DNA of 64,000 nucleotides from a virus. Position 1 is the first letter of the stretch, and each line of letters begins with the position of its first letter. Below are positions 10,781-30,031 of the stretch, piece after piece. Where the stretch lies: IMG/VR virus record IMGVR_UViG_3300010005_000040; one strand, written 5' to 3'. Both the position numbers and the translations under genes were made by a program. The notes under the pieces are model-generated. The model searched no databases and was not told where the DNA came from. It saw only the letters and a program-made list of their open reading frames with translations.

Positions 10781-10785
10781 AATAA

Positions 10786-13754: not shown

Positions 13755-13759
13755 CCATT

Positions 13760-14329
13760 ATGGATGGGATTTGCTCTATCCAAGAATGTGGAACGCCGGC
13801 AGTAGCGCGCGGATGGTGTGAGAACCATTACCGAAGATGGCTACGCAACGGTGATCCACTGAGCGGCAGGGTATCAAACGGCGAGCCAGAGCGGTTTTTG
13901 CGCGAAACGGTGTTCGTTTATGACGGCGATGAATGCCTGATTTGGCCGTTTGCGAAAAGTCATGGGCGACCGCGTATCCGTCGCGAATTTGTAACTCGTG
14001 TTGTTTGTGAAGAGACAAACGGACCGCCGCCTACGCCAGATCATGAAGCCGCGCATTCTTGCGGAAACGGGCATCTGGCCTGCGTGACCAAACGCCATTT
14101 GGCTTGGAAGACACATGCCGAAAATATGGCGGACATGATCCAGCACGGCACCAGCACGCGGGGCGAAAAGCACCCAAACGCAAGGCTGACTGATGGTGAC
14201 GTGTCGGAGATACGGCGGCTGTCCTCCCACAATACGCAGCGCGAGATCGCGAAGCTTTACGGCATTTCACAATCTCACGTCGCCAACATCCAATCCGGCA
14301 CAAAACGAAATTCAGGAGACCAGAAATGA
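13760..14329 (+). CDS. HNH (Zn-binding-loop) homing endonuclease with C-terminal HTH
   Basis: CSIQEC..GWCENHY, ECLIWP, EAAHSCGNGHLAC...HLAWKTHAENMADM, RGEKHPNARLT..DV.EIR. Confidence 0.88.
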   Translation: MDGICSIQECGTPAVARGWCENHYRRWLRNGDPLSGRVSNGEPERFLRETVFVYDGDECLIWPFAKSHGRPRIRREFVTRVVCEETNGPPPTPDHEAAHSCGNGHLACVTKRHLAWKTHAENMADMIQHGTSTRGEKHPNARLTDGDVSEIRRLSSHNTQREIAKLYGISQSHVANIQSGTKRNSGDQK

Positions 14330-14628
14330 GCACTTATCAAAAAAAGGACATGTCCGGCACGCTCTTTCGGAACGAACGGAAAGAGACCGACAGCCATCCT
14401 GATTGGGCCGGCTACATCATCATAAACGGCGTGGAACATTGGTTAAACGGCTGGGAAAAGCACGGCGCCAAAGGGCTGTTTTTCTCCCTCGCAGCCAAGC
14501 CCAAAGAGCAGCGCGCGCAAGAGATCAAGCAGGCCGCGAAACCTCGCTACGGCGATGACGACCAAGACAGGTCAGTTGGCGGCGGCTTCCATGACAAGGA
14601 AATCCCGTTCGCCCCCGAGTTTCGATGA
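14326..14628 (+). CDS. SSB-like protein (OB-fold, acidic D.EIPF tail)
   Basis: GTLFRNERKETDSHPDWAG...WLNGW...FSLA; C-terminal DKEIPF; downstream of the recombinase. Confidence 0.65.
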   Translation: MSTYQKKDMSGTLFRNERKETDSHPDWAGYIIINGVEHWLNGWEKHGAKGLFFSLAAKPKEQRAQEIKQAAKPRYGDDDQDRSVGGGFHDKEIPFAPEFR

Positions 14629-14678
14629 CAGCAAAGGGCGGTGGGGCTTCGGCTCTACCGCCCGGAAAGGCCAGGGAC

Positions 14679-14999
14679 ATGACCATTTCCAATATGCCTA
14701 TCTCAGAACAATTCCGCCTTGTCGCGAAGGAATGGGTTGAGGCCGATAGCGCAGCTCGCCTGCTAGAGGAAACCAAGACCGCAGTCCTTGCTCAACGCAT
14801 GAAGGCACTTGGCGATATGCCAGCGGCTCACTCGGAGCGTGAGGTAAAAGCCTCCCGTGAATGGGCGGATTTCATCGAAAAGATGACGCGGGCGCGGACC
14901 CAAGCCAACCTCAAAAAGGTCCAGCTTGAATACATCCGCATGCAGTTTTCCGAAGCCCAATCTTTCGAGGCCACGAAACGCGCGGAGATGAAGCTATGA
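14679..14999 (+). CDS. Conserved recombination-module protein
   Basis: AKEWVEADSAARLLEETKTAVLAQ; helical. Confidence 0.6.
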   Translation: MTISNMPISEQFRLVAKEWVEADSAARLLEETKTAVLAQRMKALGDMPAAHSEREVKASREWADFIEKMTRARTQANLKKVQLEYIRMQFSEAQSFEATKRAEMKL

Positions 15000-15178
15000 C
15001 CGCCCGCTTTTACTGGCGCCGTGCGCACCCAGTCCGCCTCCCCGACAAGGTAAACACCAAGCCTCATCAAGAACTTTGGGAAGCCTACCGCACAGAAAAG
15101 CTCAACAAGGAAATAGAACAGCTCATTGCGGCTGAACTGGACCGGGATTTTCGGAGAGCGTCAAATGGCGCGCCGTGA
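14996..15178 (+). CDS. Hypothetical protein
   Basis: Coupled 60-aa ORF. Confidence 0.45.
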   Translation: MTARFYWRRAHPVRLPDKVNTKPHQELWEAYRTEKLNKEIEQLIAAELDRDFRRASNGAP

Positions 15179-15521
15179 GTTCACACGCAAGATCCGTCAA
15201 GCTGCAATCGCCAGAGCAGCCGGCAAATGTGAGAAGTGCACCGCCGCGCTCAAGCCTGGCGAGGCAGAGGTAGACCATATCCTGCCCGACATCTTGGGCG
15301 GCGAGCCGGTGCTGGCCAATGCTCGCGTGCTCTGCCGGCCATGCCATGCGGAAAAGACGGCAGACGATATCCGCCGCACCCGCAAGGCTGACAGGCAGCG
15401 CGACAAGGCCAGCGGCGCCGTGAGGCCGAAGCAGTCGATCCCCAGCCCTCCCAAGCAACCAAAGCCAGCGCCGAAGGCAATGCCGCCGCGCCGCAATCTG
15501 TTCATGAGGAGCCAAGCATAA
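15165..15521 (+). CDS. HNH endonuclease
   Basis: CEKC...EVDHILP..LGGE..LANARVLCRPCHAEKT. Confidence 0.88.
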   Translation: MARREFTRKIRQAAIARAAGKCEKCTAALKPGEAEVDHILPDILGGEPVLANARVLCRPCHAEKTADDIRRTRKADRQRDKASGAVRPKQSIPSPPKQPKPAPKAMPPRRNLFMRSQA

Positions 15522-16276
15522 TGTTTTTGAACCGGTATCAAGACAGGCCGTCGACGCTCAAGGTTGACAACGAGATTACCTACAACGACCGCAAGGGCGC
15601 CGTCCATTCGCTCAATGAGTACAACATCACTGTCTGGCAGGACGGTGAGGTCACGGCGCAACGGAAATACTACGCCAAGAGCGACCCGAGCAGCACGTTC
15701 CCGAACATGACGGTCAGCGACGGGTCCATAAATCTGCCGATCGATGACCTCGTTGAGTTCCTCTTGGCTCGCATTACCCCGGCTGAACTTGCCGAGGGCC
15801 TCATGGAGAACGACGAGGCGCGCGAGGCCCTGGTCTACAAGATGTCAGAGCGGTTCTCGTCGCCAACGTTTCTCGACGGAGACCGTCGCACCTTCCTTAC
15901 GAAGGTTCAGCAGCAAGTCTACGCGGAAGCCATTGGCCGTGCCGTCGAGCGGCTGAACAAGGCCGAAGAAGCCCACCGTTCTCGTGATGACTACTACCGT
16001 TGGAAGGCTGTTGAAACCGGCTACTACCGGTCGATCTACGAGTCATCGATGGCGCTTCTCGATGGCGACGAAGGCAGGAAGAAGGCCTTCACCGAGCGGT
16101 ATCTGCACCCAGATAAGCTCGACGCACATATCAAGGACGGTCGAGATCCTGTCGTCAAGGAAAGCGTCGGGCCGCAGTGGCATGAGAGCCGCGATTACTG
16201 GCGCAAGCGCCTTGAGGAGTATTTCCCGGAGCCAACGTCCGATCACGCTTCTCGTCTTCGCAGGAGCGCATCATGA
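15521..16276 (+). CDS. Hypothetical protein (251 aa)
   Basis: Long coupled ORF, no family recognised. Confidence 0.7.
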   Translation: MFLNRYQDRPSTLKVDNEITYNDRKGAVHSLNEYNITVWQDGEVTAQRKYYAKSDPSSTFPNMTVSDGSINLPIDDLVEFLLARITPAELAEGLMENDEAREALVYKMSERFSSPTFLDGDRRTFLTKVQQQVYAEAIGRAVERLNKAEEAHRSRDDYYRWKAVETGYYRSIYESSMALLDGDEGRKKAFTERYLHPDKLDAHIKDGRDPVVKESVGPQWHESRDYWRKRLEEYFPEPTSDHASRLRRSAS

Positions 16277-16485
16277 GTGGAGAGACGAAGCTCACGCCGA
16301 AGCAAGCTTACGATGAACGCAGGCGGCTCCGCAGGGAAAACGACCTCCGCCGCGAACAGCGCGCCGCTTCCCAGATGGATCACGAGGACGATGTTGACCA
16401 GCGTTTAACGCGCCTCCTCGCGGCCTTCGAACGCGTGGCCGATGTCCTCGAACTTTGGGCGGATCGGCAGGAGTCGAGCACATGA
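16273..16485 (+). CDS. Hypothetical protein
   Basis: AGGAG SD, coupled. Confidence 0.55.
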   Translation: MSGETKLTPKQAYDERRRLRRENDLRREQRAASQMDHEDDVDQRLTRLLAAFERVADVLELWADRQESST

Positions 16486-17252
16486 CCCCGGATATGCCAG
16501 CCATGGATGAGAAGGGACTGGATGCGTGCCCGTTTTGCGGTAGCGACGGCAAGCCGAGACTGTTCGACTTCGACGGCGAGCCATACGTCCCTGGCTACGA
16601 GGTGCGCTGTGACGCTTCCGGCTGGGACGGCATGGAAGAGCGAGGCTGCGGTGCAACATCTGGATGGGGCGAGACGCAGGCAGAAGCCATCGCCGCATGG
16701 AACCGTCGCGCTCTCGCGGCCACCGCTCGGGATGGAGACGGAGACACGGCCACTGAACAAGAGCTCCGCGATCTATTTAGCATGGAAGATGAAGACGGCC
16801 CCCTTGAAGATGTGGTTGCGACACACAGCGGGGAATGGCGGCGTGAAGGCGATATTTGGCGGTGGCACCAAGGCGAAGAACTCGCCGTAGTTCGCGTCTC
16901 GTCCGACTGCGCCTCCCTCAAGGCTGTGCCAGAAGTGGAGGTGGTGAAGGCGGACACCCAACTAGTAGATGCCCTTTGCGCTATGCTCCGTCTGTTTGAT
17001 GACAGGCATAACTTTGTCGAAGGGCCAACGCAGACCAAGGTAGCCATAAAGAATGCTCATAAAGCTCTGTGGCCTGATAGCAAAGTAACGGCGCCGAATC
17101 CATATGCCTATGAATATGGTAGGTCCAACGGAGACGGCACGTTCAGTGTTGTCATAGAGCGCGGCGAGCCAAACAGCCCCGTTTCTGATTGGCCGGTAAA
17201 GCCCCTCTTCGCCACCCCACAACCGGCACCAGACGCAGAGGTGAAGCCGTGA
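16482..17252 (+). CDS. Lar-like restriction-alleviation domain protein (mosaic C-terminus)
   Basis: LDACPFCGS...YEVRC...GCGA...TQAEAIAAWNRR. Confidence 0.75.
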   Translation: MTPDMPAMDEKGLDACPFCGSDGKPRLFDFDGEPYVPGYEVRCDASGWDGMEERGCGATSGWGETQAEAIAAWNRRALAATARDGDGDTATEQELRDLFSMEDEDGPLEDVVATHSGEWRREGDIWRWHQGEELAVVRVSSDCASLKAVPEVEVVKADTQLVDALCAMLRLFDDRHNFVEGPTQTKVAIKNAHKALWPDSKVTAPNPYAYEYGRSNGDGTFSVVIERGEPNSPVSDWPVKPLFATPQPAPDAEVKP

Positions 17253-17980
17253 GTGCCTACTATAATGAATTTGACCCGTACGCCGCTGCTTGGCTGCGCA
17301 ATCTCATTTCCGCTGGCCTGATCGCGCCTGGCGATGTTGACGACAGGAGCATCACCGATGTCCGACCGGACGACATCACCGGATACACCCAATGCCATTT
17401 CTTTGCCGGCATCGGCGGATGGTCCTATGCAGCTAGACTTGCTGGATGGCCTGATGAGCAGCCCCTATGGACCGGGAGCTGCCCTTGCCAGCCGTTCTCC
17501 GTCGCGGGGAAGCAGCTTGGGTTCACGGACCATCGCGACCTCTGGCCGGAATTCTGGCGCCTTATCGCCGAGCGAAAGCCTCCAGTTGTCTTTGGAGAGC
17601 AGGTTGCGAGCGCGCCTAAATGGATTGCGCGGTGTAAGCGTGACCTGGAAGCCATGGGCTACGCCGTGGGGGGCAATCCTATCAAGGCCAGAGCCGTTGG
17701 AGCCCATCACAGGCGCCCACGCTTCTGGTTTGTTGCCGACGCCGAGCGGTACGAGCAACCATGGCAAGAACCATGTGGCCGGCCGTCTAGACGAGTGGGG
17801 CGGCTCATCGAATCCTTTCCGTGGGACGAGCCTTGGGAAAGTGCATTGTCCCGCTTTCGAGCTATGGGTGATGGGGTTCCCCGAAGCGTGGGCGCAACAG
17901 ATGCCGCTCGCAATGCCATCGTCCCGCAAGTCGCGGCGGAAGTGATCGGCGCCTACATGGATGCGAGGGCCGCAGCATGA
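17249..17980 (+). CDS. DNA cytosine-5 methyltransferase, main (alpha) polypeptide
   Basis: Motif I FFAGIGG, motif IV GSCPCQPFS, motif VI GEQV, motif VIII AHHRRPRFWFVA, motif X NAIVPQVA; no motif IX in frame; GTGA-coupled start. Confidence 0.9.
   Translation: MSAYYNEFDPYAAAWLRNLISAGLIAPGDVDDRSITDVRPDDITGYTQCHFFAGIGGWSYAARLAGWPDEQPLWTGSCPCQPFSVAGKQLGFTDHRDLWPEFWRLIAERKPPVVFGEQVASAPKWIARCKRDLEAMGYAVGGNPIKARAVGAHHRRPRFWFVADAERYEQPWQEPCGRPSRRVGRLIESFPWDEPWESALSRFRAMGDGVPRSVGATDAARNAIVPQVAAEVIGAYMDARAAA
17358..17945 (+). CDS. Nested +1-frame ORF: probable methyltransferase beta polypeptide (motif IX)
   Basis: AGGAG 8 nt before ATG 17358; 195-aa open frame inside the alpha gene; LLPTP and motif-IX-like CPAFELWVMGFPEAW. 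Confidence 0.72.
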   Translation: MSDRTTSPDTPNAISLPASADGPMQLDLLDGLMSSPYGPGAALASRSPSRGSSLGSRTIATSGRNSGALSPSESLQLSLESRLRARLNGLRGVSVTWKPWATPWGAILSRPEPLEPITGAHASGLLPTPSGTSNHGKNHVAGRLDEWGGSSNPFRGTSLGKVHCPAFELWVMGFPEAWAQQMPLAMPSSRKSRRK

Positions 17981-18771
17981 CCTCAATCTCTCTCCCCTCC
18001 GGTAAGATATCCGAGGCGATGGTCGAGGCGCTTCGGAACATTTCGCGCATTGCCAAGGACCGCACCGAAAATGCCCGGCATCGCGTCGACATCATCATTG
18101 AAATCGCTGACGGCGCTCTCGGAGCACACCTCGCCGCTCTATCGGTACCCGCTCCAGGCACTGGAGGGGCGGACCACTTGATGCTTGAGCGGGCAAGGGA
18201 CTGGATCGCGGACAACATTCGCGAAGGCGACATGGAGGGCTGCACGGTCCTTGGCTACTTGGCACAGTTCCTACACGGATCGGCCACCCCGCCAGCGGGA
18301 GATATGGGGGCGGTGAAGGTCAAGCCACATCTCTGGAAGGAAGACGTTGACACGCTTATCCGCGAACTCGCCGAGATGGATGACCGAACTTCGCCAGAAG
18401 ACCGCCCCGAACACCTGCTCGTCACGACCAACGAGTTGCGGCAATTCGCCAGCGATGTGAGCGCGCTTTCCTCTACCCCTGTGAGGGAGATGGACGGCTG
18501 GCAGCCAATCGAGACGGCGCCAAAGGACCAGGAAGTGCTCATTGCATACTGGCGTTGGCGCAACAGCATGTCGCCCGGCACAATTGTGGTGCAGTCCGCG
18601 AGCCTTACTGAACACCACGGCAAAGGCATTTGGTCGTGGGTTGTCAGCGACAACAAACACGGTCCGTTTCCTATTCGCGGATGGTGTGATGGCGACCTGC
18701 TCGGCTGGCAACCGCTGCCAGAGTTCGAAGAAGGCCGCGCCGCTCTCGCTACTGTGGGAGGTCGGACATGA
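17977..18771 (+). CDS. Mosaic early protein with C-terminal DUF551-like domain
   Basis: GWQPIETAPKDQEVL...LLGWQPLP. Confidence 0.7.
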   Translation: MTSISLPSGKISEAMVEALRNISRIAKDRTENARHRVDIIIEIADGALGAHLAALSVPAPGTGGADHLMLERARDWIADNIREGDMEGCTVLGYLAQFLHGSATPPAGDMGAVKVKPHLWKEDVDTLIRELAEMDDRTSPEDRPEHLLVTTNELRQFASDVSALSSTPVREMDGWQPIETAPKDQEVLIAYWRWRNSMSPGTIVVQSASLTEHHGKGIWSWVVSDNKHGPFPIRGWCDGDLLGWQPLPEFEEGRAALATVGGRT

Positions 18772-18983
18772 GCGACGACCAATTCCCGCAGACCTGGGTA
18801 ACAAATGAAATACCGCCGCGCATGCTCAAGGTTAAGGGCGTGGCGTTGATGGACCGCGATTGCCTAGTGGCTGAGATCATAGGTGAAAAACATGGGCCGC
18901 TTTGGGTCGTAGAACACAGCGGTTATGTCATCGGTATCGGTGCCGAGGTCTACGCCATTCCATGTGGGGAGCCGCGCCCATGA
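18768..18983 (+). CDS. Hypothetical protein
   Basis: GGAGG SD, coupled. Confidence 0.55.
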   Translation: MSDDQFPQTWVTNEIPPRMLKVKGVALMDRDCLVAEIIGEKHGPLWVVEHSGYVIGIGAEVYAIPCGEPRP

Positions 18984-19417: not shown

Positions 19418-19827
19418 GAGCCGACCTTCAGGACACCGACCCGATCACCCTGGTTGAGGCGAGCAAGCTCGTTCTGCGGGGGATCATCTCTGTAAGCGCC
19501 TTGCGCGCGGAAATCAGGCGTGGAAACCTGAGCGTCGAGCGGATTGGCAAGAACCTGTACACGACGCCCGCCGCGATACGCGAGATGAGGGACAAATGCC
19601 GCGTCATGCCGAACCACCAAGACTATACCTCAGAAAAGACCGAGGTCAAAGCGTCTGGATCATCCGCGACGGCGGAAAAGACAAGCGAACTGGCTGCACT
19701 GAAGGCGAGCGTTCACGCGCTGAAAACCGGTTCGCTGAGTACCTTGCGGAGAAGCACACCGCCCGACCAGCAAAAGGCGGAAAGTCCGATACCGTTTCGA
19801 TCGCGGAAGTCCTCCGGGTCTACGTGA
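19414..19827 (+). CDS. Excisionase-like winged-HTH protein overlapping int
   Basis: ITLVEAS...SALRAEIRRGNL.VERIGKNLYTTPAAIREM; GGAGG SD. Confidence 0.7.
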   Translation: MRADLQDTDPITLVEASKLVLRGIISVSALRAEIRRGNLSVERIGKNLYTTPAAIREMRDKCRVMPNHQDYTSEKTEVKASGSSATAEKTSELAALKASVHALKTGSLSTLRRSTPPDQQKAESPIPFRSRKSSGST

Positions 19828-20639
19828 TGGAACATGCTCCGACCACGGCCAAGCCGAAGCTCATCGCCGAGCATGTCGAGGGGCTGACGGACTTTTGGGC
19901 GCCGAAGAATGTTTCCAGCATCAAGGGTTCGAGCTGTCGGGCTTTTGCCGCGACCAAGACGGCATCCATGGCGAGGCGCGAACTAGAGACGCTGAGAGCG
20001 GCAGTTAACTACTTCCACAGGGAATACGGGCTGGACCCGGTGCCGGCCTTCACGATGCCACAGAAGCACCGCGCGCGCGACAGGTGGCTGACCCGCGATG
20101 AGGCCGCCGCGCTGCTCTGGAGCGCCCGCAGGACGCCTCACCTCGCACGGTTCATCCTCATCGGCCTTTACACAGGAACGCGCTCAGGCGCCATCCTTGG
20201 CCTATCCTGGCTACCGTCGATCAAGACCGGCTGGCTGGATCTGGAACAGGGCATCATGCACCGCAGCGGCAATGGCCAGCGCGAGACGAAGAAGCGCCAG
20301 CCGCCGGTTGCTTTGCCTGATAGGCTCATGGCCCATATGCGACGGTGGAAACGGCTGGATAAGAGCATCCGCCACGTCATCAATTGGAACGGATCGTCGG
20401 TGATTTCGGTGAAGAAATCCTTCCGTTCCGCGCGGATAAATGCTAAGTTAGATCAACAGGTTATCCCGCATACGTTGCGCCATACGGCGGCGACTTGGCT
20501 CATGCAATCAGGCATCGAGCCATGGCAGGCGGCAGGGTTCCTGGGGATGACGGTCGAGATGCTGGAGCGGACTTACGGGCATCATTCGCCCAAGTTCCAG
20601 AAGGCAGCGTCGACGGCTATAGCGGCAAGGAGAGCGTGA
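19596..20639 (+). CDS. int: Tyrosine integrase
   Basis: YTGTRSGAI (Arg I), PHTLRHTAATW (H-x-x-R), AAGFLG, YGHH (catalytic Tyr). Confidence 0.95.
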   Translation: MPRHAEPPRLYLRKDRGQSVWIIRDGGKDKRTGCTEGERSRAENRFAEYLAEKHTARPAKGGKSDTVSIAEVLRVYVMEHAPTTAKPKLIAEHVEGLTDFWAPKNVSSIKGSSCRAFAATKTASMARRELETLRAAVNYFHREYGLDPVPAFTMPQKHRARDRWLTRDEAAALLWSARRTPHLARFILIGLYTGTRSGAILGLSWLPSIKTGWLDLEQGIMHRSGNGQRETKKRQPPVALPDRLMAHMRRWKRLDKSIRHVINWNGSSVISVKKSFRSARINAKLDQQVIPHTLRHTAATWLMQSGIEPWQAAGFLGMTVEMLERTYGHHSPKFQKAASTAIAARRA

Positions 20640-20839: not shown

Positions 20840-21102
20840 GCGCGCACACTAATTTTCGGCAAGGTCAGCCCGTCTTTGTGCAGTTAAAGACCGGCGAAAA
20901 ATTTGTAGATCGATTCCACCAGCACCGATCAACCCATATTGTCTTGAGGAACCATGGGCGCATCGACATCGCCGACATCCGGGCGGTTAGCATTAATAGA
21001 TCGACGCGCACAGAAACCGCACTGAAACAACCGATAGTGACTAAAACCAACGTGAACGAACAAGGGACAGAAGGCGACTTGGGAACGAACAAACTGGGCT
21101 GA
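20836..21102 (+). CDS. Hypothetical protein ending at the attP core
   Basis: ATGA-coupled; GQPVFVQLKTGEKFVDRF SH3/KOW-like start. Confidence 0.55.
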   Translation: MSAHTNFRQGQPVFVQLKTGEKFVDRFHQHRSTHIVLRNHGRIDIADIRAVSINRSTRTETALKQPIVTKTNVNEQGTEGDLGTNKLG

Positions 21103-21183
21103 CTCCTCGTTCGGGACGAGGGGGTCGCAGGTTCAAATCCTGCCACTCCGACCAGCCGGCGCACAGATACGCGCACAGAAACC
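21006..21183 (+). repeat. Putative integrase arm-type sites GCGCACAGA(A/T)AC at 21006, 21159, 21171
   Basis: Direct repeats flanking the att core; two are in tandem. Confidence 0.65.
21105..21154 (+). other. attP core = 3' half of tRNA-Pro(CGG)
   Basis: CCTCG-TTCGGGA-CGAGG anticodon arm, GGTTCAAATCC T-arm, acceptor 3' strand ending ACCA; no 5' half upstream. Confidence 0.92.
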
Positions 21184-21239
21184 CCCGAAAATCGCCTTTT
21201 GTTCCTCTGGTGTTCACCCCACCAAGAAGGAGCCTAAGC

Positions 21240-21578
21240 ATGGAAATGGTCGAGAAGATCGCGCGCGCGCTGGCTGACCACTACATGGTCGATCCTGAAA
21301 CATGCTGGCCCTCATATGAAGCCGCTGCCCGCGTCGCCATAGAGGCCATGTCCTTGGAGATTTCGCTTGACGTTCTGATGGCGGGGGCCAAGGCATTGGC
21401 GCTTTACAACATTGAAAAGGATGGTCCCGCCAAGCCCCATGACGAATGCGCAACGCCGGATGACTGGATGGGTCGTGGTGCAAATATAGCCGGCAGAATG
21501 CAGTCGGGGGAAGGCATGAGGCGCGCATTCAAGGCCATGATCGACGCCGCCCTCTCTTCCTCTACCAGAGGGGAATGA
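21240..21578 (+). CDS. Hypothetical protein
   Basis: AGGAG SD; MVEKIARALA...AARVAIEAM pattern. Confidence 0.65.
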   Translation: MEMVEKIARALADHYMVDPETCWPSYEAAARVAIEAMSLEISLDVLMAGAKALALYNIEKDGPAKPHDECATPDDWMGRGANIAGRMQSGEGMRRAFKAMIDAALSSSTRGE

Positions 21579-21581
21579 ACG

Positions 21582-21863
21582 ATGGCTGAGCGGGACGACG
21601 CCATCCGATTGGCGAATAAAGTGCTGGACGAAGCCGGGCGCGACCCCGACGATGACCTGTCGATGCTGAGCCGGCAGTTTCTCCGGTCGCTGGAGGGCTA
21701 TATCGTCACCGTACCGGCGGAGCCGACCGAAGCAATGATCAGCGCTGGGTATGATCGCCTGTCAAAGCTATACGAGCAGAAGGCGACATCAGGGATGGAG
21801 ATCCGAGAAACCGCTGCAAGAGCCTATAGGGCTATGATCGCGGCTCGGCCGCCTCGCCCCTAA
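21582..21863 (+). CDS. Hypothetical protein
   Basis: VPAEPTEAMISAG...YRAMIAARP motif common in phage early proteins. Confidence 0.65.
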   Translation: MAERDDAIRLANKVLDEAGRDPDDDLSMLSRQFLRSLEGYIVTVPAEPTEAMISAGYDRLSKLYEQKATSGMEIRETAARAYRAMIAARPPRP

Positions 21864-21899
21864 CCCTCCGCATATTCGCAGCACCGGTAGGAGAGAAGA

Positions 21900-22124
21900 A
21901 TGCTGGCTACTACGATGCACAAGATTGGTGATGACGGTTGGCCGGGGCCGATCTGGCAAGGCGTCAACGAGCAGAAGATCATTCTTCACCTCGCCCGCGA
22001 CTCCCACAAGAAGACGGTCGGCTATGTCGATGTTGAGACCGCTGACGGGAGGGTGCGTGGTTACGTCGGGGATCTGATCATTCGCACACCGGACGATCAG
22101 TTCCTCGTCGTTCACAAGAGGTAG
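21900..22124 (+). CDS. Hypothetical protein
   Basis: GGAG SD; VETADGRVRGYVGDLII. Confidence 0.6.
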   Translation: MLATTMHKIGDDGWPGPIWQGVNEQKIILHLARDSHKKTVGYVDVETADGRVRGYVGDLIIRTPDDQFLVVHKR

Positions 22125-22126
22125 CC

Positions 22127-22222
22127 ATGACCGTCCGAGCCATGCTCGCTCTGCTCCCTATCGGCGCTGCCATATTGGCGGTGCTGTATGGGTTGAGGTA
22201 TGTCGGATGGATCGATTTCTGA
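22127..22222 (+). CDS. 31-aa single-TM protein MTVRAMLALLPIGAAILAVLYGLRYVGWIDF
   Basis: GAGG SD; hydrophobic; fills the gap between neighbours. Confidence 0.5.
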   Translation: MTVRAMLALLPIGAAILAVLYGLRYVGWIDF

Positions 22223-22228
22223 TAGGAG

Positions 22229-22447
22229 ATGATGATGGGCAGACTGCATCTTTCGCGGAATCAGAACAGCATGATCGAGATGATGGCTCGCGAGGTCGTA
22301 AACTGCGCTGGCGGGAGCTATGGCACTGTCTACGCGGCGATGCGCGATGCCTATTTGTGCGGAAGCCTTCGCATCACCTACCCCGAGTTGCAGGCTCTGC
22401 AAGCAGCCGAACGGGCAAAGTTCAAGGACGTGGAGCCGGCGTTCTAA
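22229..22447 (+). CDS. Hypothetical protein
   Basis: AGGAG SD; last gene of the rightward operon. Confidence 0.55.
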   Translation: MMMGRLHLSRNQNSMIEMMAREVVNCAGGSYGTVYAAMRDAYLCGSLRITYPELQALQAAERAKFKDVEPAF

Positions 22448-22571: not shown

Positions 22572-22736
22572 TCAGCGCTTCACTTCGAAACGGAGTGAAC
22601 TCGTAGCTTGCATTATGAACTCGATCAGATCGACATAGCTTACATCGCCGACCTTGTAGCCATTGAACATGAGTTCCCGCTTGGGGGTTTTGCCGTCTGG
22701 TTCCAGGGTGACGCGGATGGCGATTTTCTGGCTCAT
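22572..22736 (-). CDS. 54-aa hypothetical protein
   Basis: ATGA-coupled to the phosphoesterase stop (MSQKIAIRVTLEPDGK...). Confidence 0.5.
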   Translation of the reverse strand: MSQKIAIRVTLEPDGKTPKRELMFNGYKVGDVSYVDLIEFIMQATSSLRFEVKR

Positions 22737-23770
22737 GAATAGCGTTCCGCGAGTTCGAGCATCGAAACAAACTGGTCACTCTCAACCCGGCCGCCCCGCA
22801 GTCTCAACAGGTGGACGCCGTATGTGTATCCAGTCGTTGCCCCGTCCGTATATTTCGGCGTGTAGCCATACGGCATGGCAGAGCCGAGGTTGGTGATCGT
22901 GATGGCATTGTTGATGCCGATCTTCGGCACCGTGACATTGTTGTTTCGGTGGGTATGGCCAAAGACGATGGAATGCGTGGCCTGGTTGCCGATGGTGTTT
23001 TCGGGATAGCGCCCGCCGATCGGCTTCTGCATGATGCTCATAGGGACGTGGGTAAAGCCGACGCCTTCGAAAAATAGCCAGTGACGGTATGGGGTCGTGC
23101 GCCAGCGATATCGGGCAAAGAACTGCTGGACCTGTAGCGTTAGGGTCCCGGCGAGGTTAGGCGCCAGTTCCTCCAGTCGGTCAACTCTGTTCTCGTGATT
23201 CCCAAAAACAACATCATGCGGGATTTCCCCTGCCCCGATCTCGGAATGGTAGATGTCGAATGCTTCCTGCCCGGCTTCGATCTCGTCAATGAAGGCCGGT
23301 CGCTTCATCTGGCTAGCAGAGCCGGCGGCGCTGTGCATCTCGCAGGATTCGAAGTCGAAGCAGTCGCCGATCTGGAGAACGTTGTCAGGGCGTGTTTCCG
23401 CCACATAGCGGCCTATCCAGCGCATGTGTTCGAAGTCCATGCCCGGCTTTAGGTGAAGATCCCCAATCGCCACCATGCGCCTTACAGGGAGGTCTTTGGT
23501 GACGGAGAGATTGTAGGCCCGAACGCGGACACGAGGTTTGACCTCCTCAATGCCCTCTATGTCGGGGGTGTAATCGGTCTGGGCTGTTTCCGCGTCTTCA
23601 GCCTTGATCCGCTCGAGATATCGATAGACTGTCTGCCTGTGGAAGCCAGTGGCGGTCGAGAGTCCGGAGCGGTTTATGGACCCATCCGCCCTGGTGAACT
23701 CTGGAAGGTATTGCCGGATGCGCAATAGGGCATCTGGCGAAATGAATGTAACCCCGTCTGGGTTCACCAT
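22733..23770 (-). CDS. Calcineurin-like metallophosphoesterase with N-terminal HTH
   Basis: GDLH, GDCFD, GNHE, THVP, GHTHR motifs; N-terminal INRSGLSTATGFHRQTVYRYL. Confidence 0.88.
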   Translation of the reverse strand: MVNPDGVTFISPDALLRIRQYLPEFTRADGSINRSGLSTATGFHRQTVYRYLERIKAEDAETAQTDYTPDIEGIEEVKPRVRVRAYNLSVTKDLPVRRMVAIGDLHLKPGMDFEHMRWIGRYVAETRPDNVLQIGDCFDFESCEMHSAAGSASQMKRPAFIDEIEAGQEAFDIYHSEIGAGEIPHDVVFGNHENRVDRLEELAPNLAGTLTLQVQQFFARYRWRTTPYRHWLFFEGVGFTHVPMSIMQKPIGGRYPENTIGNQATHSIVFGHTHRNNNVTVPKIGINNAITITNLGSAMPYGYTPKYTDGATTGYTYGVHLLRLRGGRVESDQFVSMLELAERYS

Positions 23771-23803
23771 CTCGGGCTCCGATCTGTTGGAGTATTCGGG
23801 GGA

Positions 23804-24244
23804 TTATGGGAGAGAAATTGCTGGCGTCTCTGGCGTTTTGGCTTCAGAGCCAGTGACGGGCGGCGGGCCGTCATATTCAGCCCCGCCATCGCCATCCAAC
23901 TTGACGTGCGGACCTTGGCCTGTGCCTTGGGCGCCGTCCTGCGCAGCCTGCATCTTGTTCGCGGCTTCGTTTGTATACGGTAGGAGATAGTAGACCGGCG
24001 GGTTGCCGCCCTCTTTCAGAAGCACCCATATTCCCACGTTAGGAACGATGTCTGCCCCGACGAGGGTATAATCACCAGCTGGGGGCGAGGTGAACCTCGG
24101 GGTACCTGTGGGGAGGTAGACGGCGAGAGCGGCGAGGCATACGGCAATTGGCAGAGAAAGGCCGATAACTCGCCGTTTGGCGAACCATGCGAAGGTGCAG
24201 AGTAAGACCGCGAGGCCAAGCCAAGTTGAGGCGAGCAGGGTCAT
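23804..24244 (-). CDS. Two-TM membrane protein with soluble C-terminal domain
   Basis: ATGA-coupled start 24244; two hydrophobic segments then beta-rich domain. Confidence 0.65.
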   Translation of the reverse strand: MTLLASTWLGLAVLLCTFAWFAKRRVIGLSLPIAVCLAALAVYLPTGTPRFTSPPAGDYTLVGADIVPNVGIWVLLKEGGNPPVYYLLPYTNEAANKMQAAQDGAQGTGQGPHVKLDGDGGAEYDGPPPVTGSEAKTPETPAISLP

Positions 24245-24330
24245 TCGTCCCCCAGATACCAAAGGCCCACGGCTGAGAAGATCAGGCATGCAGCGAAGAA
24301 GGTGAGGAAGGCGATGGCGGCCCACATCAT
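24241..24330 (-). CDS. 29-aa single-TM protein MMWAAIAFLTFFAACLIFSAVGLWYLGDE
   Basis: ATGA overlaps at both ends. Confidence 0.6.
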   Translation of the reverse strand: MMWAAIAFLTFFAACLIFSAVGLWYLGDE

Positions 24331-24866
24331 GACGCGGACCTCAGCGGCACATAGACTAGATTGGTCGAGCCGGGAACGATGTCCCCCTTACCGCCCAGCG
24401 TGAAGCGGATTACAGTTCGTTCCTGGCGAGGCTTGAGCGCCATATCCGTGGACACCAACAGGCGCCCATTCAGCGAAACTTCAACATGAACGTTGACAGA
24501 TTCCGTCAGGCTGTATCCATGAATGTTGACGGCGTATTCGCCGGCCGGAGTTGCGCGGGCAAAAGCACTCTCACAATTCACCGGGCTCGCGTCGTTGACG
24601 GTGCCCATGTCATCGCGCAGCAGGGACCATATGAGGCCCGCCTTGCGACTGTAGCCAACTGACTTATCACCGGGCGCGCCTAGCCAGAGATCGACGTCAG
24701 TAGGCCCCGGAGGCCAGCACATAAGCACGGCGATGTTGCCTGGAGGCGGCAAGGCATCGGGATTGTCTTTGGCTACCGGGTTGATCTGCGCAAGGACTAG
24801 AACGACAAGCGCTGTCAGGCCCAGAAGGAAGTTCGACAGGATGTCGCGGATCAGGGTGAAGATCAC
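24327..24866 (-). CDS. MotB/ExbD-like Asp-TM anchor fused to a YfaP/DUF2135-like domain
   Basis: GTGA-coupled; N-terminal TM beginning RD-ILSNFLLGL; W...TDVDLW...DD...E...GEYAVNIHGY beta-sandwich pattern. Confidence 0.6.
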   Translation of the reverse strand: MIFTLIRDILSNFLLGLTALVVLVLAQINPVAKDNPDALPPPGNIAVLMCWPPGPTDVDLWLGAPGDKSVGYSRKAGLIWSLLRDDMGTVNDASPVNCESAFARATPAGEYAVNIHGYSLTESVNVHVEVSLNGRLLVSTDMALKPRQERTVIRFTLGGKGDIVPGSTNLVYVPLRSAS

Positions 24867-25264
24867 TTCCCTACCACCCATGCATTGATGCTTATCCAGA
24901 TCGACGCCACGGCACCTACAAGGCTGCTGCAAAAAGCAACTCCCATGCCGGCTAGCAGATTGGCTGCTACCTTCTGAACGCCCTCTGCGGAGCCTAGAGC
25001 GCCCGTGTCGATGCCGTGCATGGCAAGCACGAAACCGATGAGGTTACCTATTAGACCGAGGGTTACGAGCCAAACCTCCACGCGCTCGATGTGGCCCGTT
25101 TTGCCGAGGAAGATGCCGGCAAGGCTAGCAACGAACAACGCGGTAATCAGGTAACTCAGATGGGAGATATCATGGCTGAAAACGAACTGGACGTATCCCA
25201 GGCAGGCCGCCCAGATAACGAAGCATAGGCCGGCGAAATTCAGGATGAAGAGACGCAGGGTCAT
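24863..25264 (-). CDS. Minimal MotA/TolQ/ExbB-like channel protein
   Basis: 133 aa, four hydrophobic segments; LGLIGNLIGF and GMGVAFCSSLVG match the last two TMs of the family. Confidence 0.65.
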   Translation of the reverse strand: MTLRLFILNFAGLCFVIWAACLGYVQFVFSHDISHLSYLITALFVASLAGIFLGKTGHIERVEVWLVTLGLIGNLIGFVLAMHGIDTGALGSAEGVQKVAANLLAGMGVAFCSSLVGAVASIWISINAWVVGK

Positions 25265-25800
25265 TGTGCCGCCACCGTCACAGGACATTTGGGAAGCAGT
25301 AGCTCAGCGGGGATGACGAGCATGGTGTTCGTCTCATCGCCATCGGTGGGGGATGGCACACGGACACTCTTCAGGTATTTGCGCAGGGGCGCCGGCAGGC
25401 TTTCAAGCTGCATCCGCCATATCTCGCGCGCCGACCTCACGGCCGATTTGGAACGGCGGATTGTCTTGCCATCGGGAAGCATCGCGAAAGGCTTGTGAAA
25501 GCCGAAGATTGCGCCCTCGTCCGCGCATGCCCTGATGCCGGTGAATTCGGTGAACAGGACGAATGTGCAAGCGCTTGCACACATGCCGTGATAGTGGATC
25601 TCGGCCCCGGCGAAGCTCAGTGCCTGATATTTCCGATAGTACTCGGAGACGTTGCCGCCCGGGTCATCGGTGATGTGAATGACTGGCCGCTCCGGTGCGG
25701 CATGGGCCTGGATGGTAAGGGCAACGCTCATAAACATGGCCAGAGCCAACGCTGCCAACAGAATAGAAAAAGCAACCCAGAAGCGACTGTTCTCGCCCAT
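25261..25800 (-). CDS. Secreted ClpP/crotonase-fold (S49-like) protein
   Basis: Signal peptide ending AHA; DDPGG, GMCASAC (nucleophile Ser position), FGFHKP (His position). Confidence 0.6.
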   Translation of the reverse strand: MGENSRFWVAFSILLAALALAMFMSVALTIQAHAAPERPVIHITDDPGGNVSEYYRKYQALSFAGAEIHYHGMCASACTFVLFTEFTGIRACADEGAIFGFHKPFAMLPDGKTIRRSKSAVRSAREIWRMQLESLPAPLRKYLKSVRVPSPTDGDETNTMLVIPAELLLPKCPVTVAAQ

Positions 25801-25830: not shown

Positions 25831-26004
25831 TTAGTCGCGGTCGCGATCGGTCAGTTTTGTGATGATCTGGACCAGCAGCCATGCGCAGCCGAGGATCGGG
25901 AGCAGGAGCGCGGCGTTCTGCGAAATGTCGGCCAGAGACGGCATCCACCAAGGGGAAACAGCGGCGCCGGCAGCAATCACGTTTGTCACCTTGTCTATGG
26001 TCAC
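25831..26004 (-). CDS. Small membrane protein (holin/antiholin-like)
   Basis: GTGA-coupled to o-spanin; 57 aa, hydrophobic, charged C-tail TDRDRD. Confidence 0.55.
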   Translation of the reverse strand: MTIDKVTNVIAAGAAVSPWWMPSLADISQNAALLLPILGCAWLLVQIITKLTDRDRD

Positions 26005-26261
26005 TTGCCTGTCTCCAGTACGGAGACGGCTTTCGAAAGAGCGCCGTGACGGCGGGCACAGTTGGTCAGGGCTCGCCGATCCGAGGCCCACAGTCTGGCC
26101 ACGTCAGCCTGGGTGAGATCCCTGTCCGGAATGTTGACAATGCCAGCGCATGCCTGCCGAAGCGATTGCGGGATTTTGGCTGTGACCGGGGGCAGAACCG
26201 AGTGGCGATCGGTGGCACATCCAGAGAGGGCAAGGACCGCGCAAAGGAGGATAGCTTTCAT
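26001..26261 (-). CDS. Rz1: o-spanin lipoprotein
   Basis: Lipobox LSGC after a hydrophobic leader; Pro-rich mature part; follows i-spanin. Confidence 0.75.
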   Translation of the reverse strand: MKAILLCAVLALSGCATDRHSVLPPVTAKIPQSLRQACAGIVNIPDRDLTQADVARLWASDRRALTNCARRHGALSKAVSVLETGK

Positions 26262-26596
26262 CGCCCTGCTCCGTTTATGGCGCGGGCAAGCGATTTCGGC
26301 AGGGCTGGCTTTTGGTCAGCACCCTCCGACTTTATGGCTTCCTCAAGCGCGGTTTGCGTCTCTGCCAGTTGGCCTTGAATGGCGAGGTAATCCGCCTCTA
26401 TCTGATCGATCTGGCGCTGGTCGGAAGCGGCTTTGGCGAGCTGTTTGGCCTGGTCTTCCTCGCGCTGTGCGACCCATGCGGCACGCTCTACGGAGGCACC
26501 CTCTGCCCTGCCCTTGTAGAACTCGCGAGCACCATATCCGAAGAAGAGCGCAACGCAGATCGCGGCGGCGGCCAGATAGGCCAGGATTGTGTTCAT
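26258..26596 (-). CDS. Rz: i-spanin
   Basis: N-terminal TM plus coiled coil; ATGA-coupled start 26596. Confidence 0.72.
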   Translation of the reverse strand: MNTILAYLAAAAICVALFFGYGAREFYKGRAEGASVERAAWVAQREEDQAKQLAKAASDQRQIDQIEADYLAIQGQLAETQTALEEAIKSEGADQKPALPKSLARAINGAGR

Positions 26597-26682
26597 GCGA
26601 GCCACCACACAAGGAAAATGGCCACAACCAGCAGTGAACCGGCTCCGATGATGCGCAGTGCGTAATCAAGGACTTTGACCAT
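26593..26682 (-). CDS. 29-aa single-TM protein MVKVLDYALRIIGAGSLLVVAIFLVWWLA
   Basis: TGATG overlap with the endolysin stop, ATGA overlap with Rz. Confidence 0.55.
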   Translation of the reverse strand: MVKVLDYALRIIGAGSLLVVAIFLVWWLA

Positions 26683-27143
26683 CACAGCCCCCGCAAGCAC
26701 AGTTCGCGCTCTTTGGCGCGGCGCTTGGTCAGACCGGGAAAAGTGATGCCAACAGCCTTGTTCCAGGCCATGAGCGCATCGCAGCCCTCGCGAGTGCGGT
26801 TCTGATTGATCAGCCGGACAACGCTGGATTTGCAGGCCGCGCCTACCCCGACATTGTAGGCAAAGCTGGTGAGGGCAACGAACCGGTCATCCGGTAGGGG
26901 AACCTTGACGCAAGCCTCTATGCCGTTGGCGTATTTCTCAAGGCTCCTGACAAGCATGGCCTTGCATTCAGCGATCGAGTGGTAGTCGCCCTTGTGGACG
27001 TTTTCCGTCTCGCCATAACACACGGTCCAAGGAGGTCCGCCAGTCGCCGGATCTGGGTAGGCATTCTGACGAAGGCCCTCGAACCCGCCGATAAGCGAGA
27101 CAGCCAATGCGGCGGCTACGCCACCCTTTTTAAGACGGCTCAT
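26682..27143 (-). CDS. GH24 lysozyme endolysin, possibly SAR type
   Basis: FEG...YPD...WTVCYGET catalytic pattern, ALTSFAYNVG, GLTKRRAKERELC; Gly/Ala-rich hydrophobic N-terminus. Confidence 0.92.
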   Translation of the reverse strand: MSRLKKGGVAAALAVSLIGGFEGLRQNAYPDPATGGPPWTVCYGETENVHKGDYHSIAECKAMLVRSLEKYANGIEACVKVPLPDDRFVALTSFAYNVGVGAACKSSVVRLINQNRTREGCDALMAWNKAVGITFPGLTKRRAKERELCLRGL

Positions 27144-27363
27144 TGGAACCTCCAGAGATCGGTTTTTGCGCGATGAAGCGGGCATAGATCGCGCCCGCTG
27201 AAACGAAGCCGGACAACGCGGCGAACAGACCGCGTGGGATCGGAAACAGCCCGTCGAGATAGGGCCAAGCCGCTTCAAGGCCGGTCAGGACCACGGCAAG
27301 CACCATGAGCCGAACGCTCCACGCATGGCGAAGTACGGCCCGCCAGTTCGAGACGAGTTGCAT
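27130..27363 (-). CDS. Holin
   Basis: 77 aa, two TMs, immediately upstream of the endolysin; LVSNWRAVLRHAWSVR pattern. Confidence 0.8.
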   Translation of the reverse strand: MQLVSNWRAVLRHAWSVRLMVLAVVLTGLEAAWPYLDGLFPIPRGLFAALSGFVSAGAIYARFIAQKPISGGSNEPS

Positions 27364-27632: not shown

Positions 27633-27938
27633 ATGCGAAATATTGCTCAGACACAGACCGTCAAAATCTACAAGCTGCTGCGGGTCGAAGGTCAGCCCTG
27701 GGTGGCTTCAGTTGATATTCACGGCAAATTCATCAAGGCCGAGGGCAAGACGCAGGCCGAAGCGCTGATCGCGCTGGCTCAGATCTGGCCGGAACCGACC
27801 GAACAGGCTCCTGAACCAGAACAGCAGAGCTATATAAGCAGTGATTTTGCCATGCTGGCTGCGGTGCCCCCGCAGAAGCGGGCCGCCCTTGAGCGGATGT
27901 ACGCTACTTCTCACATGGCTATTCCCAAAGAGGATTAG
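27633..27938 (+). CDS. Opposite-strand hypothetical protein (moron-like)
   Basis: AGGA SD; 101 aa; convergent 4-bp overlap with the tailspike stop. Confidence 0.55.
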   Translation: MRNIAQTQTVKIYKLLRVEGQPWVASVDIHGKFIKAEGKTQAEALIALAQIWPEPTEQAPEPEQQSYISSDFAMLAAVPPQKRAALERMYATSHMAIPKED

Positions 27939-30031
27939 GCCACCTCGTATTCGAGAAAGCCAACCAACCTCTGCGTATTCGCCACAGGGAATGGTGTTAT
28001 ATTTGCCGTTGTTCCGGTCGCTATGACCCGGATGACGCCCGATGCGTTTGTGGCCGTATTGATCCAAGAACCTACGGCCGGCGAAACTGCCGCCGCACCG
28101 GTAGGAAGCGTGGCTGTCAGGCCTACGGTTCCTGTTCCGATGTTTGTGATCGTGATGTCGAATGACACCCTAACGGTCTTCCCCTTGCGTTGATAGCGAC
28201 AAGCAAGCGTTCCAACGGTGGTCAGAGTACCAGTAATAGCGGTGACTGTCGGGGTGAAGCTGAGCCACTCCTCACTCTCGAAGATGCCGGCACCCGTAAC
28301 GATAGGCGCTGCCGTGGAGTCTTTTGTCAGGACTCCGACGTTTAGTCGATTACCTGTAGTGACATTGAAGGCCGGAACCGTCCCCGTAGCATTTCCGTCC
28401 CACCGGGATATCTTCGTCCGATCAACCTTAATCTCACCGCCTGTCCCGTCCATGTAAACAAGCTCGGCCATGTTCAAGTCAAGATCGAGATGGCCGATCG
28501 AAACGCGGCTGTTGGTCCCACTGTCGCGTAGGAGATAACTGTTGGCGGCCCAGGTAAGTCCGGATTGACCGTATATTTTGTCAAAAACCAGCTCGGGAGA
28601 TGCCCCAGATTCGATCTGTAGCGTTGTAGCGGCGCTGTCCCCGCCCACGCTATCGAAATAGCCTCTCAAGCATGATCCACCGGGAAGAGACGCGGGGAAA
28701 TTGACGCCCGCCGCCCCCAAACTGAATGCCAGGTTTCTAAGATATCCGATGGAGAATATGCGCCCGACCTTTGGATTATCGGCGCGGTAGAAGCGGAAAG
28801 CCGTCGCAGCCGCCCTCTGGTACGCCCGCACATTGCTATCGTTCGACCAATACGGCCAAAATCCGATCTCATCCATCCATATGACATCGTAGCAGTTGCG
28901 AAGCTCAATGCCCGTAGTCATAGGCTGGCCGCCGATGTGACGGAGGTGAACTCGACCGCAGCCGGCGCCAGTTCCGCCCACGCTGTCGTCGCCAATCAGT
29001 TGAATGCCCTTGGTCCCGTTCAGGATCGTGATGTCTTCAACGACAACATCTGCCGACCCTACGATCTTAATATCGAAGTCGTGCGCGGTTGGCGCCCAGC
29101 CCGCCCCCGGTGCCGGCTGCGTCCGGTAAGTGGTAAGGCCGCGCATTTCTGCACCGAAAGCAGACGACGCGAGAAGACCGACGCCGGTATGCCCGAAGTG
29201 CAGAACGGTCTTTTTTTGGCTGGCCATCGCGAGCCCGCCGTAGATAGAGCCCATCGCGCCCTCGCCCTGGACCTTCGCCTGAGCGGGGATATTGACCGTG
29301 CTGCCCAGCGCCATGGTACCGGCTGGGATCCACAAGGTGTCGCCTGTCCCGGCAACTGCCGTTAGGGCGGAGGAGAGAAGCGACGACATGTCATTGGTAT
29401 CGGTCATGTCCAGACCGTTCCAGTCGCGCAGATCGGCGCGATCGGATGCTTTGGCGTTCCATGTCCTAATGGCAGGGCTTCCGCTCAACGGCTGGGAAAA
29501 CCCGGCCCATGTCGGATCTGTGGAGGCGCCGTTCGTCTGGAGGTGATAGCCAGAAGTCGAAGCCGCCAACCTGGTGTTGGTAGTTGCGTTGCGAAAAATA
29601 AGGTCGCCACGCGTCGTGGTCGGAGCAAGAGAGTCGAAGCCAGCCGCAGCGTTGGCGATAGTGAGGAGCGATCGCCCCGTCGAGGTCGTTGTCAGGGCCG
29701 CAATGGCTGTCAGATCAGCGTCCAGGGGCTGGTATGCAGCAGCAATACCGGCGGTGTTTAGATAGGCAGATGGATTAACAGCCGACCATGCCGCCAGATT
29801 GGCTGAATATGCCTGGATATCGGTGCCGATCACCAGGCCAAGGTTGGTGCGGGCGCCTGATGCCGTAGAAGCGCCTGTGCCACCATCAGCCACAACGACA
29901 TCAGTACCGCCTGGGATATAATATGCGGAAGTAGGAGCGGAGCGGCTATTGCCTCCCTGAACCACGTAGGTCAGTTCTGTTCCGGCGAGCGGAAGGGTGG
30001 CGGCCGTGAGCGCAGAGGTGGTTTTGCTCAT
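27935..30031 (-). CDS. Tailspike/tail fibre with pectate-lyase-like beta-helix (putative depolymerase)
   Basis: N-terminal VADGGTGASTASGARTNLGL and QPLDADLTAIAAL fibre motifs; D...L.SAL.A...TG.TLWIPAG beta-helix start. Confidence 0.8.
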   Translation of the reverse strand: MSKTTSALTAATLPLAGTELTYVVQGGNSRSAPTSAYYIPGGTDVVVADGGTGASTASGARTNLGLVIGTDIQAYSANLAAWSAVNPSAYLNTAGIAAAYQPLDADLTAIAALTTTSTGRSLLTIANAAAGFDSLAPTTTRGDLIFRNATTNTRLAASTSGYHLQTNGASTDPTWAGFSQPLSGSPAIRTWNAKASDRADLRDWNGLDMTDTNDMSSLLSSALTAVAGTGDTLWIPAGTMALGSTVNIPAQAKVQGEGAMGSIYGGLAMASQKKTVLHFGHTGVGLLASSAFGAEMRGLTTYRTQPAPGAGWAPTAHDFDIKIVGSADVVVEDITILNGTKGIQLIGDDSVGGTGAGCGRVHLRHIGGQPMTTGIELRNCYDVIWMDEIGFWPYWSNDSNVRAYQRAAATAFRFYRADNPKVGRIFSIGYLRNLAFSLGAAGVNFPASLPGGSCLRGYFDSVGGDSAATTLQIESGASPELVFDKIYGQSGLTWAANSYLLRDSGTNSRVSIGHLDLDLNMAELVYMDGTGGEIKVDRTKISRWDGNATGTVPAFNVTTGNRLNVGVLTKDSTAAPIVTGAGIFESEEWLSFTPTVTAITGTLTTVGTLACRYQRKGKTVRVSFDITITNIGTGTVGLTATLPTGAAAVSPAVGSWINTATNASGVIRVIATGTTANITPFPVANTQRLVGFLEYEVA

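Follow-up and report, generated by a model that had tools for sequence, protein, structure and literature searches.

The window analyzed here is a 64,000-nucleotide stretch of viral DNA, IMG/VR record IMGVR_UViG_3300010005_000040. Between positions 22,572 and 25,800 it carries seven contiguous genes on the minus strand, designated A to G from upstream to downstream, which follow the lysis genes of a phage. Three of them are the subject of this work: B, encoding a small channel protein; C, encoding a partner with a transmembrane (TM) aspartate and a predicted periplasmic domain; and E, encoding a protein with two TM helices. The evidence supports well a widespread three-gene cassette, of which we found no published description and which is probably a new variant of MotA/ExbB-type motors. 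An initial annotation of the same DNA, made without database searches, had instead proposed that all seven genes form a single system.

B is a minimal member of the MotA/ExbB family

B was assigned to the MotA/ExbB family from its sequence relatives. Orthologs with 74 to 79% identity contain PF01618, and NCBI names them MotA/TolQ/ExbB; chromosomal homologs that are 25 to 29% identical to B scored 33.7 to 40.7 bits against this model, for which the cut-off is 22.9. Similarly, a profile of the B family matched solved ZorA and MotA chains in the PDB with a best E of 1.3e-4, the ZorA hits being 8vvn and 8qyy. The ZorA models of PADLOC matched the TM3-TM4 channel region of B (7.5e-6), and the match covered just positions ~110 to 175 of models that are 420 to 1063 positions long. 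Conservation among 56 B sequences was highest at L69, G70, G73, and G77, present in 100%, and at G23, D32, and G117, present in 98%.

B is close to the minimum size for this family, with four TM helices and hardly any cytoplasmic loop. By comparison, ExbB, TolQ, and MotA comprise approximately 230 to 295 residues. In the alignment, the cytoplasmic loop between TM2 and TM3 spans ~10 residues in the short phage forms versus 25 to 60 in the longer homologs, and the protein ends five residues after TM4. B was also considered as a holin, an identity that was rejected: the sole match was to Phage_holin_7_1, with an E of 0.36, in a homolog.

C combines a transmembrane aspartate with a TerD-like sandwich

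The N-terminus of C reads ...IRD(8)ILSNFLLGL..., which places Asp8 at the start of the TM helix. All 58 sequences of the family retain Asp8; W51, D57, D59, D85, G88, E99, and T151 are equally invariant. The AlphaFold2 model of C, with a predicted local distance difference test (pLDDT) score of 84, consists of the TM helix and a β-sandwich. Residues ~41 to 177 of the model matched TerD structures over 130 to 131 residues with Z scores of 10.6 (2qz7) and 10.0 (2kxt), the next match scoring 6.0. Foldseek yielded a PDB match at 4.6e-4 and matches to DUF2135 entries in AFDB down to 6.2e-11. Sequence identity in these TerD and DUF2135 structural matches was 8 to 24%. Judged from the model, the sandwich has a TerD/DUF2135-like (YfaP-like) fold. 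It shares conserved acidic clusters with the Ca2+-binding TerD and is possibly Ca2+-binding itself, but it differs from the TerD/DUF2135 domains in being fused to a stator-type TM helix, an arrangement for which no description was found.

Sequence searches placed C in no established family. The Pfam DUF2135 model (PF09906, 48 positions) reached a non-significant E of 0.23 in the Thalassobaculum homolog and did not match the C of the window. ExbD/TolR (PF02472) gave no match at E ≤ 1 for C or its chromosomal homologs, and neither family nor structure searches of C matched a MotB, OmpA-like, or peptidoglycan-binding domain. A search of PDB sequences with the C profile returned no match. The family has 2123 representatives at 50% identity (E ≤ 1e-3), nearly all of 180 to 215 residues, and no Pfam family exists for it. 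Thus, the channel and Asp-TM partner that the initial annotation had proposed withstood scrutiny, through PF01618 in the orthologs of B, the ZorA/MotA profile matches, and the invariant Asp8, and its description of C as YfaP-like agrees with the fold matches to TerD and to the DUF2135 entries.

E is the third component and D a lineage-specific addition

The AlphaFold2 model of E (pLDDT 80) shows a small β-barrel with one helix beyond the two TM helices. A basic KRR between these helices would place the C-terminal domain in the periplasm. No informative match to E was obtained in Pfam, NCBIfam, PHROG, PADLOC, the PDB, or AFDB; the protein matched uncharacterized proteins only, among them an ESM-Atlas cluster of 3912 members, 80% of which are viral.

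D encodes a 29-residue TM peptide between C and E. Identical or related copies lie directly upstream of E in loci L006, L007, and L009, and D was detected in four of the 52 loci of the B-anchored set described below. D is a lineage-specific accessory placed before E.

The trio travels as a unit in diverse phages

Loci were gathered using C as an anchor together with the B profile, which yielded 60 viral and several genomic loci; the 52 viral loci found with the B profile form the set counted here. Every one of the 52 has C after B, and 47 have E after C. Of the five in which E was not detected, some are very divergent or stop shortly after C. The phages that bear the trio range in GC content from 0.36 to 0.69. 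Some carry it amid DNA-metabolism genes and lack hallmarks of lysogeny; in divergent phages the trio stands alone, with SbcCD, a helicase, PhoH, or a GH108 endolysin as its neighbor or with one half of a terminase large subunit on either side. In Sinorhizobium meliloti phage 16-3, the trio is present but unannotated, as p038/p040/p042 in the same order. It follows p036, a trypsin-like serine protease, and precedes a gene annotated as 'DNA repair exonuclease'.

These observations support well a unit consisting of B, C, and E, to which D was added in the lineage of the window. The initial annotation had proposed a candidate undescribed membrane module of seven genes; a conserved module is indeed present, but the gene-neighborhood survey gives its extent as B-C-E, plus D in a few relatives. 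B and C often overlap, but this is not conserved; in relatives, inserts reach 919 bp at the B-C junction and 1257 bp at the C-E junction.

Several loci showed further features within or beside the trio. An HNH-like open reading frame (ORF), recognized by motif only, lies between C and E at L008:8530-9309. In Rhizobium phage RHph_TM3_3_14B (MN988496.1, near 10543-11061), the C match coincides in part with an annotated Seg-like homing endonuclease. Homing-endonuclease genes in or beside the cassette may account for the many insertions between the trio genes. In a phage contig of GC content 0.52, a small secreted protein and B, C, and E lie between a terminase-ATPase-like N-half ORF and a Terminase_6C ORF (L065:538-4011), such that the cassette appears to interrupt the terminase large subunit. 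In a phage of GC content 0.36 that carries PhoH, a vWA-like ORF, also recognized by motif only, lies 2 bp upstream of B (L081:1303-2349). DUF2135 domains often accompany vWA proteins.

Chromosomal relatives of the trio

The trio also occurs in bacterial chromosomes. In Azospirillum and Thalassobaculum, a three-gene operon encodes a MotA_ExbB protein of 227 to 229 residues, a C homolog of 202 residues, and an E homolog of 160 to 170 residues; it is surrounded by ordinary metabolic and signaling genes, with no phage genes nearby. The C profile matched 55 of 401 sampled Alphaproteobacteria, including genomes of 0.8 to 2 Mb. Stand-alone trio operons are also found among housekeeping genes in Alphaproteobacteria of 1.1 to 2.1 Mb. 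Of four loci retrieved from such small genomes, three contained B, C, and E together, beside ORFs that read as thrB, cysDN, or spoT and rpoZ; in L089, E was recognized by eye only, as a 175-residue ORF. An E homolog followed C in each chromosomal operon examined. The three genes thus keep company across widely different phages as well as in chromosomes.

Phage and chromosomal sequences are intermingled in a maximum-likelihood tree of C, which requires four or more changes of label. The C of the window falls in an all-phage clade of 28 rhizobial-phage rows. Separately, a conserved ORF of 262 to 263 residues with a lipoprotein-like N-terminus and no Pfam match follows the trio in two small-genome loci (L089:7328-8116 and L091:7192-7983), and its product may be a fourth part of this system in cells.

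Flanking genes A, F, and G

The positions of the trio, its neighbors, and other features of the phage are summarized in Table 1.

Table 1. Features of the phage genome discussed in the text, in order of position in the window
Feature	Position	Strand	Description
Integrase	19596-20639	+	
Candidate attP core	21095-21151	+	partial tRNA-like match, 21.6 bits, E 0.23, under the Rfam threshold; ~450 bp 3′ of the integrase gene
G	22572-22736	-	54 aa; ATGA overlap with F
F	22733-23770	-	345 aa; helix-turn-helix (HTH) and calcineurin-like metallophosphoesterase; phrog_221 4.9e-33
E	23804-24244	-	146 aa; 2 TM, small periplasmic β-barrel with one helix, Pro-rich tail (predicted); third trio member
D	24241-24330	-	29-aa TM peptide; ATGA overlaps at both ends
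C	24327-24866	-	179 aa; one TM and periplasmic β-sandwich (predicted); GTG start overlaps B stop; core of trio
B	24863-25264	-	133 aa; 4 TM; MotA/ExbB/TolQ family; core of trio
A	25261-25800	-	179 aa; secreted, candidate ClpP/S14-fold serine peptidase; variable accessory
Small ORF between Rz1 and A	25831-26004	-	57 aa; C-terminal TM helix; GTG overlaps Rz1 stop as GTGA 26004-26001
Rz1/LysC	26001-26261	-	LysC/Rz1 1.6e-8
Rz	26258-26608	-	Rz-like spanin phrogs
Endolysin	26682-27146	-	Phage_lysozyme 1.6e-38
Holin-like	27130-27363	-	
Lysis cassette	26001-27363	-	holin-like, endolysin, Rz, Rz1; upstream of A-G
Tail fiber	27935-30031	-	

A begins with a signal-like hydrophobic segment ending in AHA/AP and belongs to phrog_19619 (5e-23), a group of unknown function. 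Its matches to ClpP were sub-threshold (Pfam 13 bits, cut-off 20.2, E 0.093; NCBIfam E 0.035; PDB profile E 0.7 to 1.4) and all in one register, with the invariant S76 and H102 at the Ser/His region of ClpP. From these matches, A is a candidate secreted ClpP-fold peptidase. The initial annotation had named it a secreted ClpP-fold protein, of which the secreted part agrees with the signal-like N-terminus while the ClpP part stays below threshold. Directly upstream of B, A occupied the slot in eight of the 52 loci, a trypsin-like peptidase in 20 (Trypsin_2 6.8e-21), and a small secreted two-Cys protein in seven; in the remainder it held unrelated genes or nothing. A is thus a lineage-specific secreted accessory outside the core. 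In rhizobiophages, the recurrent exchange of one secreted protease for another just before B is a hint of a functional link, but this is confined to related phages.

The description of F as an HTH-metallophosphoesterase was upheld by phrog_221 and by weak HTH matches (HTH_29, N-terminal). F scored 20.1 bits against Pfam Metallophos (cut-off 21.5), and its translation contains all four motifs: GDLH, GDCFD, GNHE, and GHTH. Members of the F family are present in 383 phage records, most of them from Pseudomonas and Acinetobacter phages; C occurs in eight, all from Rhizobium or Sinorhizobium phages. Loci of close F homologs contained the trio in two of six cases. In L025, ~700 bp separate Rz1 from F, and no trio gene was detected there; since a close relative passes from the lysis genes straight to F, the cassette is optional. 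G gave a weak PurS-like match to TIGR00302 (E 2e-4, below the cut-off) and follows F or F-like genes in a few relatives. F and G are phage-backbone neighbors unrelated to the trio. At L058:7693-9585, a metallophosphoesterase of 630 residues overlaps a small ORF after E and contains LAGLIDADG_3 in mid-protein, which resembles an intein- or homing-endonuclease-like insertion.

These data bear on the proposal that A to G together form one stoichiometric envelope system, with a periplasmic protease or sensor, a motor, and a cytoplasmic phosphoesterase as its output. The seven genes are contiguous on the same strand where the initial annotation had placed them, and reading base by base confirmed all five 4-bp overlaps: ATGA at 25264-25261, GTGA at 24866-24863, ATGA at 24330-24327, ATGA at 24244-24241, and ATGA at 22736-22733. 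E and F are separated by 33 nt containing GGAG. In rhizobial phages, a secreted protein precedes B in ~35 of the 52 loci, and ~30, all in related temperate phages, have a metallophosphoesterase from any of three subfamilies after E; phage 16-3 has its protease, trio, and 'DNA repair exonuclease' in the matching order. Nevertheless, a seven-gene system is very improbable. Chromosomal operons and divergent phages hold B-C-E only, the A slot is taken by non-homologous proteins, and B has no cytoplasmic domain able to signal to F. The cytoplasmic hydrolase output finds no support, given the hundreds of unrelated phages and the four of six close relatives that carry F without the trio. Strict start-stop coupling had been read as the mark of one complex; it is real, but it is not conserved in relatives, and genes are tightly packed throughout the late strand. 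The ORF list revealed abutting or overlapping junctions repeatedly along the entire strand, so the coupling gives no module borders.

Relation to known systems

The Ton (ExbB-ExbD-TonB) and Tol (TolQ-TolR-TolA) systems are the closest working analogs of the trio. In each, a single operon encodes three inner-membrane proteins. The first is a channel of the MotA/ExbB/TolQ family; the second, its partner, has one TM helix that bears an essential-type Asp close to its cytoplasmic end; and the third is membrane-anchored, reaches into the periplasm, and has a Pro-rich stretch. The components differ in each case. ExbB and TolQ are about twice as large as B, which has four TM helices and no cytoplasmic domain. 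C has the TerD/DUF2135-like sandwich, whereas ExbD and TolR have PF02472. E has two TM helices instead of one and a small β-barrel; it lacks a TonB_C or TolA domain as well as an SHLS-type motif, and structure searches did not match it to TonB or TolA, although its Pro-rich tail is reminiscent of theirs. The trio is also mostly phage-borne, unlike Ton and Tol.

The trio resembles MotA-MotB and PomA-PomB in having an A-type subunit of four TM helices with both termini inside, a B-type subunit with a TM Asp, and overlapping genes. It differs in that B lacks the torque-generating cytoplasmic loop and C lacks a plug and an OmpA-like domain. A 2025 survey of MotAB homologs describes 'generic ion transporters' with assorted DUF appendages; the trio and phage-borne forms are absent from it (PMC12505986). 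A literature search on DUF2135 or phage-encoded ExbB/ExbD found nothing relevant, and no paper on the trio was found.

In sequence, the channel helices of B (TM3-TM4) are closest to ZorA, and the partner of ZorA likewise has a TM Asp. The initial annotation had noted an echo of Zorya, which extends to these two channel helices of B and not to the long cytoplasmic tail of ZorA, the peptidoglycan-binding domain of ZorB, or the ZorC/D/E effectors, none of which the trio has. PADLOC yielded no matches for A, C, D, E, F, or G. The likeness raises the possibility that the trio is a prophage-borne, Zorya-like defense or superinfection-exclusion system, in which a MotAB-like complex would sense the envelope perturbation caused by an incoming phage and block that phage without a cytoplasmic effector. 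The position of the cassette at the prophage end near the candidate attP and integrase gene, a common place for conversion genes, would suit such a system, as would its optional presence among close relatives. Moreover, the TerD-containing ter operon has been linked to phage inhibition and colicin resistance. This explanation is unlikely, however. In addition to the missing Zorya parts of the 133-residue B and its partners, no promoter or terminator of its own was detected for the cassette, and the trio occurs in the phages without lysogeny hallmarks and in core chromosomal positions rather than in defense islands.

Proposed mechanism and role

We consider it likely that B-C-E, with D in this lineage, is a self-contained mobile cassette encoding an ion-driven inner-membrane motor of the MotA/ExbB/TolQ kind (5:2). 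By analogy with MotAB, ExbBD, and TolQR, five B subunits would surround the helices of two C subunits (B5C2), and proton flow via Asp8 would turn or stroke the B ring around the C dimer. Because B lacks a cytoplasmic domain, work would be delivered in the membrane or periplasm, through the C sandwich and E. The latter would dock on the B ring as TonB and TolA dock on ExbB and TolQ.

Simple scans found no sigma-70-like promoter around the cassette, and terminator-like sites occurred at chance level. Given this result and its position at the end of the late operon, the cassette is probably made late, alongside the lysis proteins. An alternative use of the channel, in place of force generation, would be a regulated proton leak that helps time lysis, in which B-C would open late, the potential would fall, and the holin would be triggered, with E or D acting as the gate. 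Unplugged MotAB leaks protons, and depolarization triggers holins. The cassette directly follows the holin-endolysin-spanin genes in the window and in many rhizobial phages, and the lack of a cytoplasmic output domain in B fits a leak. Such a timer is nonetheless quite improbable, as there are chromosomal housekeeping homologs and phage copies far from lysis genes, the elaborate and highly conserved periplasmic domains of C and E would be needless for a leak, and a close relative without the cassette still lyses.

For the motor that we prefer, a tentative role is the exclusion of superinfecting phages or protection of the envelope. Held a little more tentatively is a role in remodeling the envelope for lysis or egress, together with the secreted protease; other roles take up what remains. 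It is also possible, if doubtful as a whole, that B-C-E is an ancient, distinct branch of the Ton/Tol/Mot type with a Ca2+-binding, TerD-like stator domain and its own two-TM transducer. On this scenario, it would serve as a core envelope machine in some Alphaproteobacteria, including streamlined ones, and phages would have repeatedly captured and miniaturized it, in rhizobiophages alongside a secreted protease, as a means of acting on the host envelope during infection, such as keeping competitors out or readying the outer membrane for release.

Several points weigh against the motor as proposed. The B of the window scored 11.4 bits against PF01618, below the cut-off of 22.9, so its family membership rests on its close orthologs. 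Binding between B and C is proposed by analogy with the known motor pairs; a complex prediction with four B and two C(1-45), i.e. not 5:2, scored 0.04, which is evidence neither way. The TonB/TolA-like role of E would be a pure analogy, E matching nothing known. A B-C fusion exists in P0262, a 342-residue metagenome protein, but this single sequence on a single contig carries little weight as Rosetta-stone evidence and is maybe a frameshift artifact. With respect to role, adjacency to lysis genes is limited to rhizobial phages; exclusion, help with lysis or egress, and a proton-leak timer are each compatible with part of the evidence; and the promoter and terminator scans were run without tuning to Alphaproteobacteria.

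If the motor interpretation is correct, the 133-residue B, nearly devoid of a cytoplasmic loop, would offer a compact system in which to study how such machines convert ion flow into work. The trio would couple a motor to a TerD-like partner domain and a new two-TM protein, an output unseen in the Ton, Tol, flagellar, gliding, and Zorya systems. The C family, with more than 2,000 clusters at 50% identity, is common in phages ranging from those of soil rhizobia to low-GC marine ones, and in some small bacterial genomes it is core-like. Finally, phage 16-3 is a classic and genetically tractable Sinorhizobium phage, so that its p038/p040/p042 make the function directly testable.

Genome context

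Bases 1-18894 of the window are identical to 45107-64000. The window is thus a circular phage genome of 45,106 bp with wrap-around, and features below 18,894 are seen twice. The phage is temperate and of Mesorhizobium type; its closest relatives at the protein level come from Mesorhizobium genomes and from prophage-like contigs. At the DNA level, a near search revealed no similarity to known phages, and a distant search yielded a single match of 167 bp. ARAGORN did not find a complete tRNA at the candidate attP region. The late operon is long and runs on the minus strand from the terminase to the tail fiber.

Between the candidate attP and G, four small plus-strand ORFs of 122, 93, 74, and 72 residues (21210-22447) converge with the late operon. 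They gave no informative family matches and may be conversion genes with separate transcription in the lysogen.

The 57-residue ORF between Rz1 and A, absent from the initial annotation, stops 30 nt before A. It had no family match, and a small TM protein lies at the same position, between Rz1 and the A slot, in related phages too.

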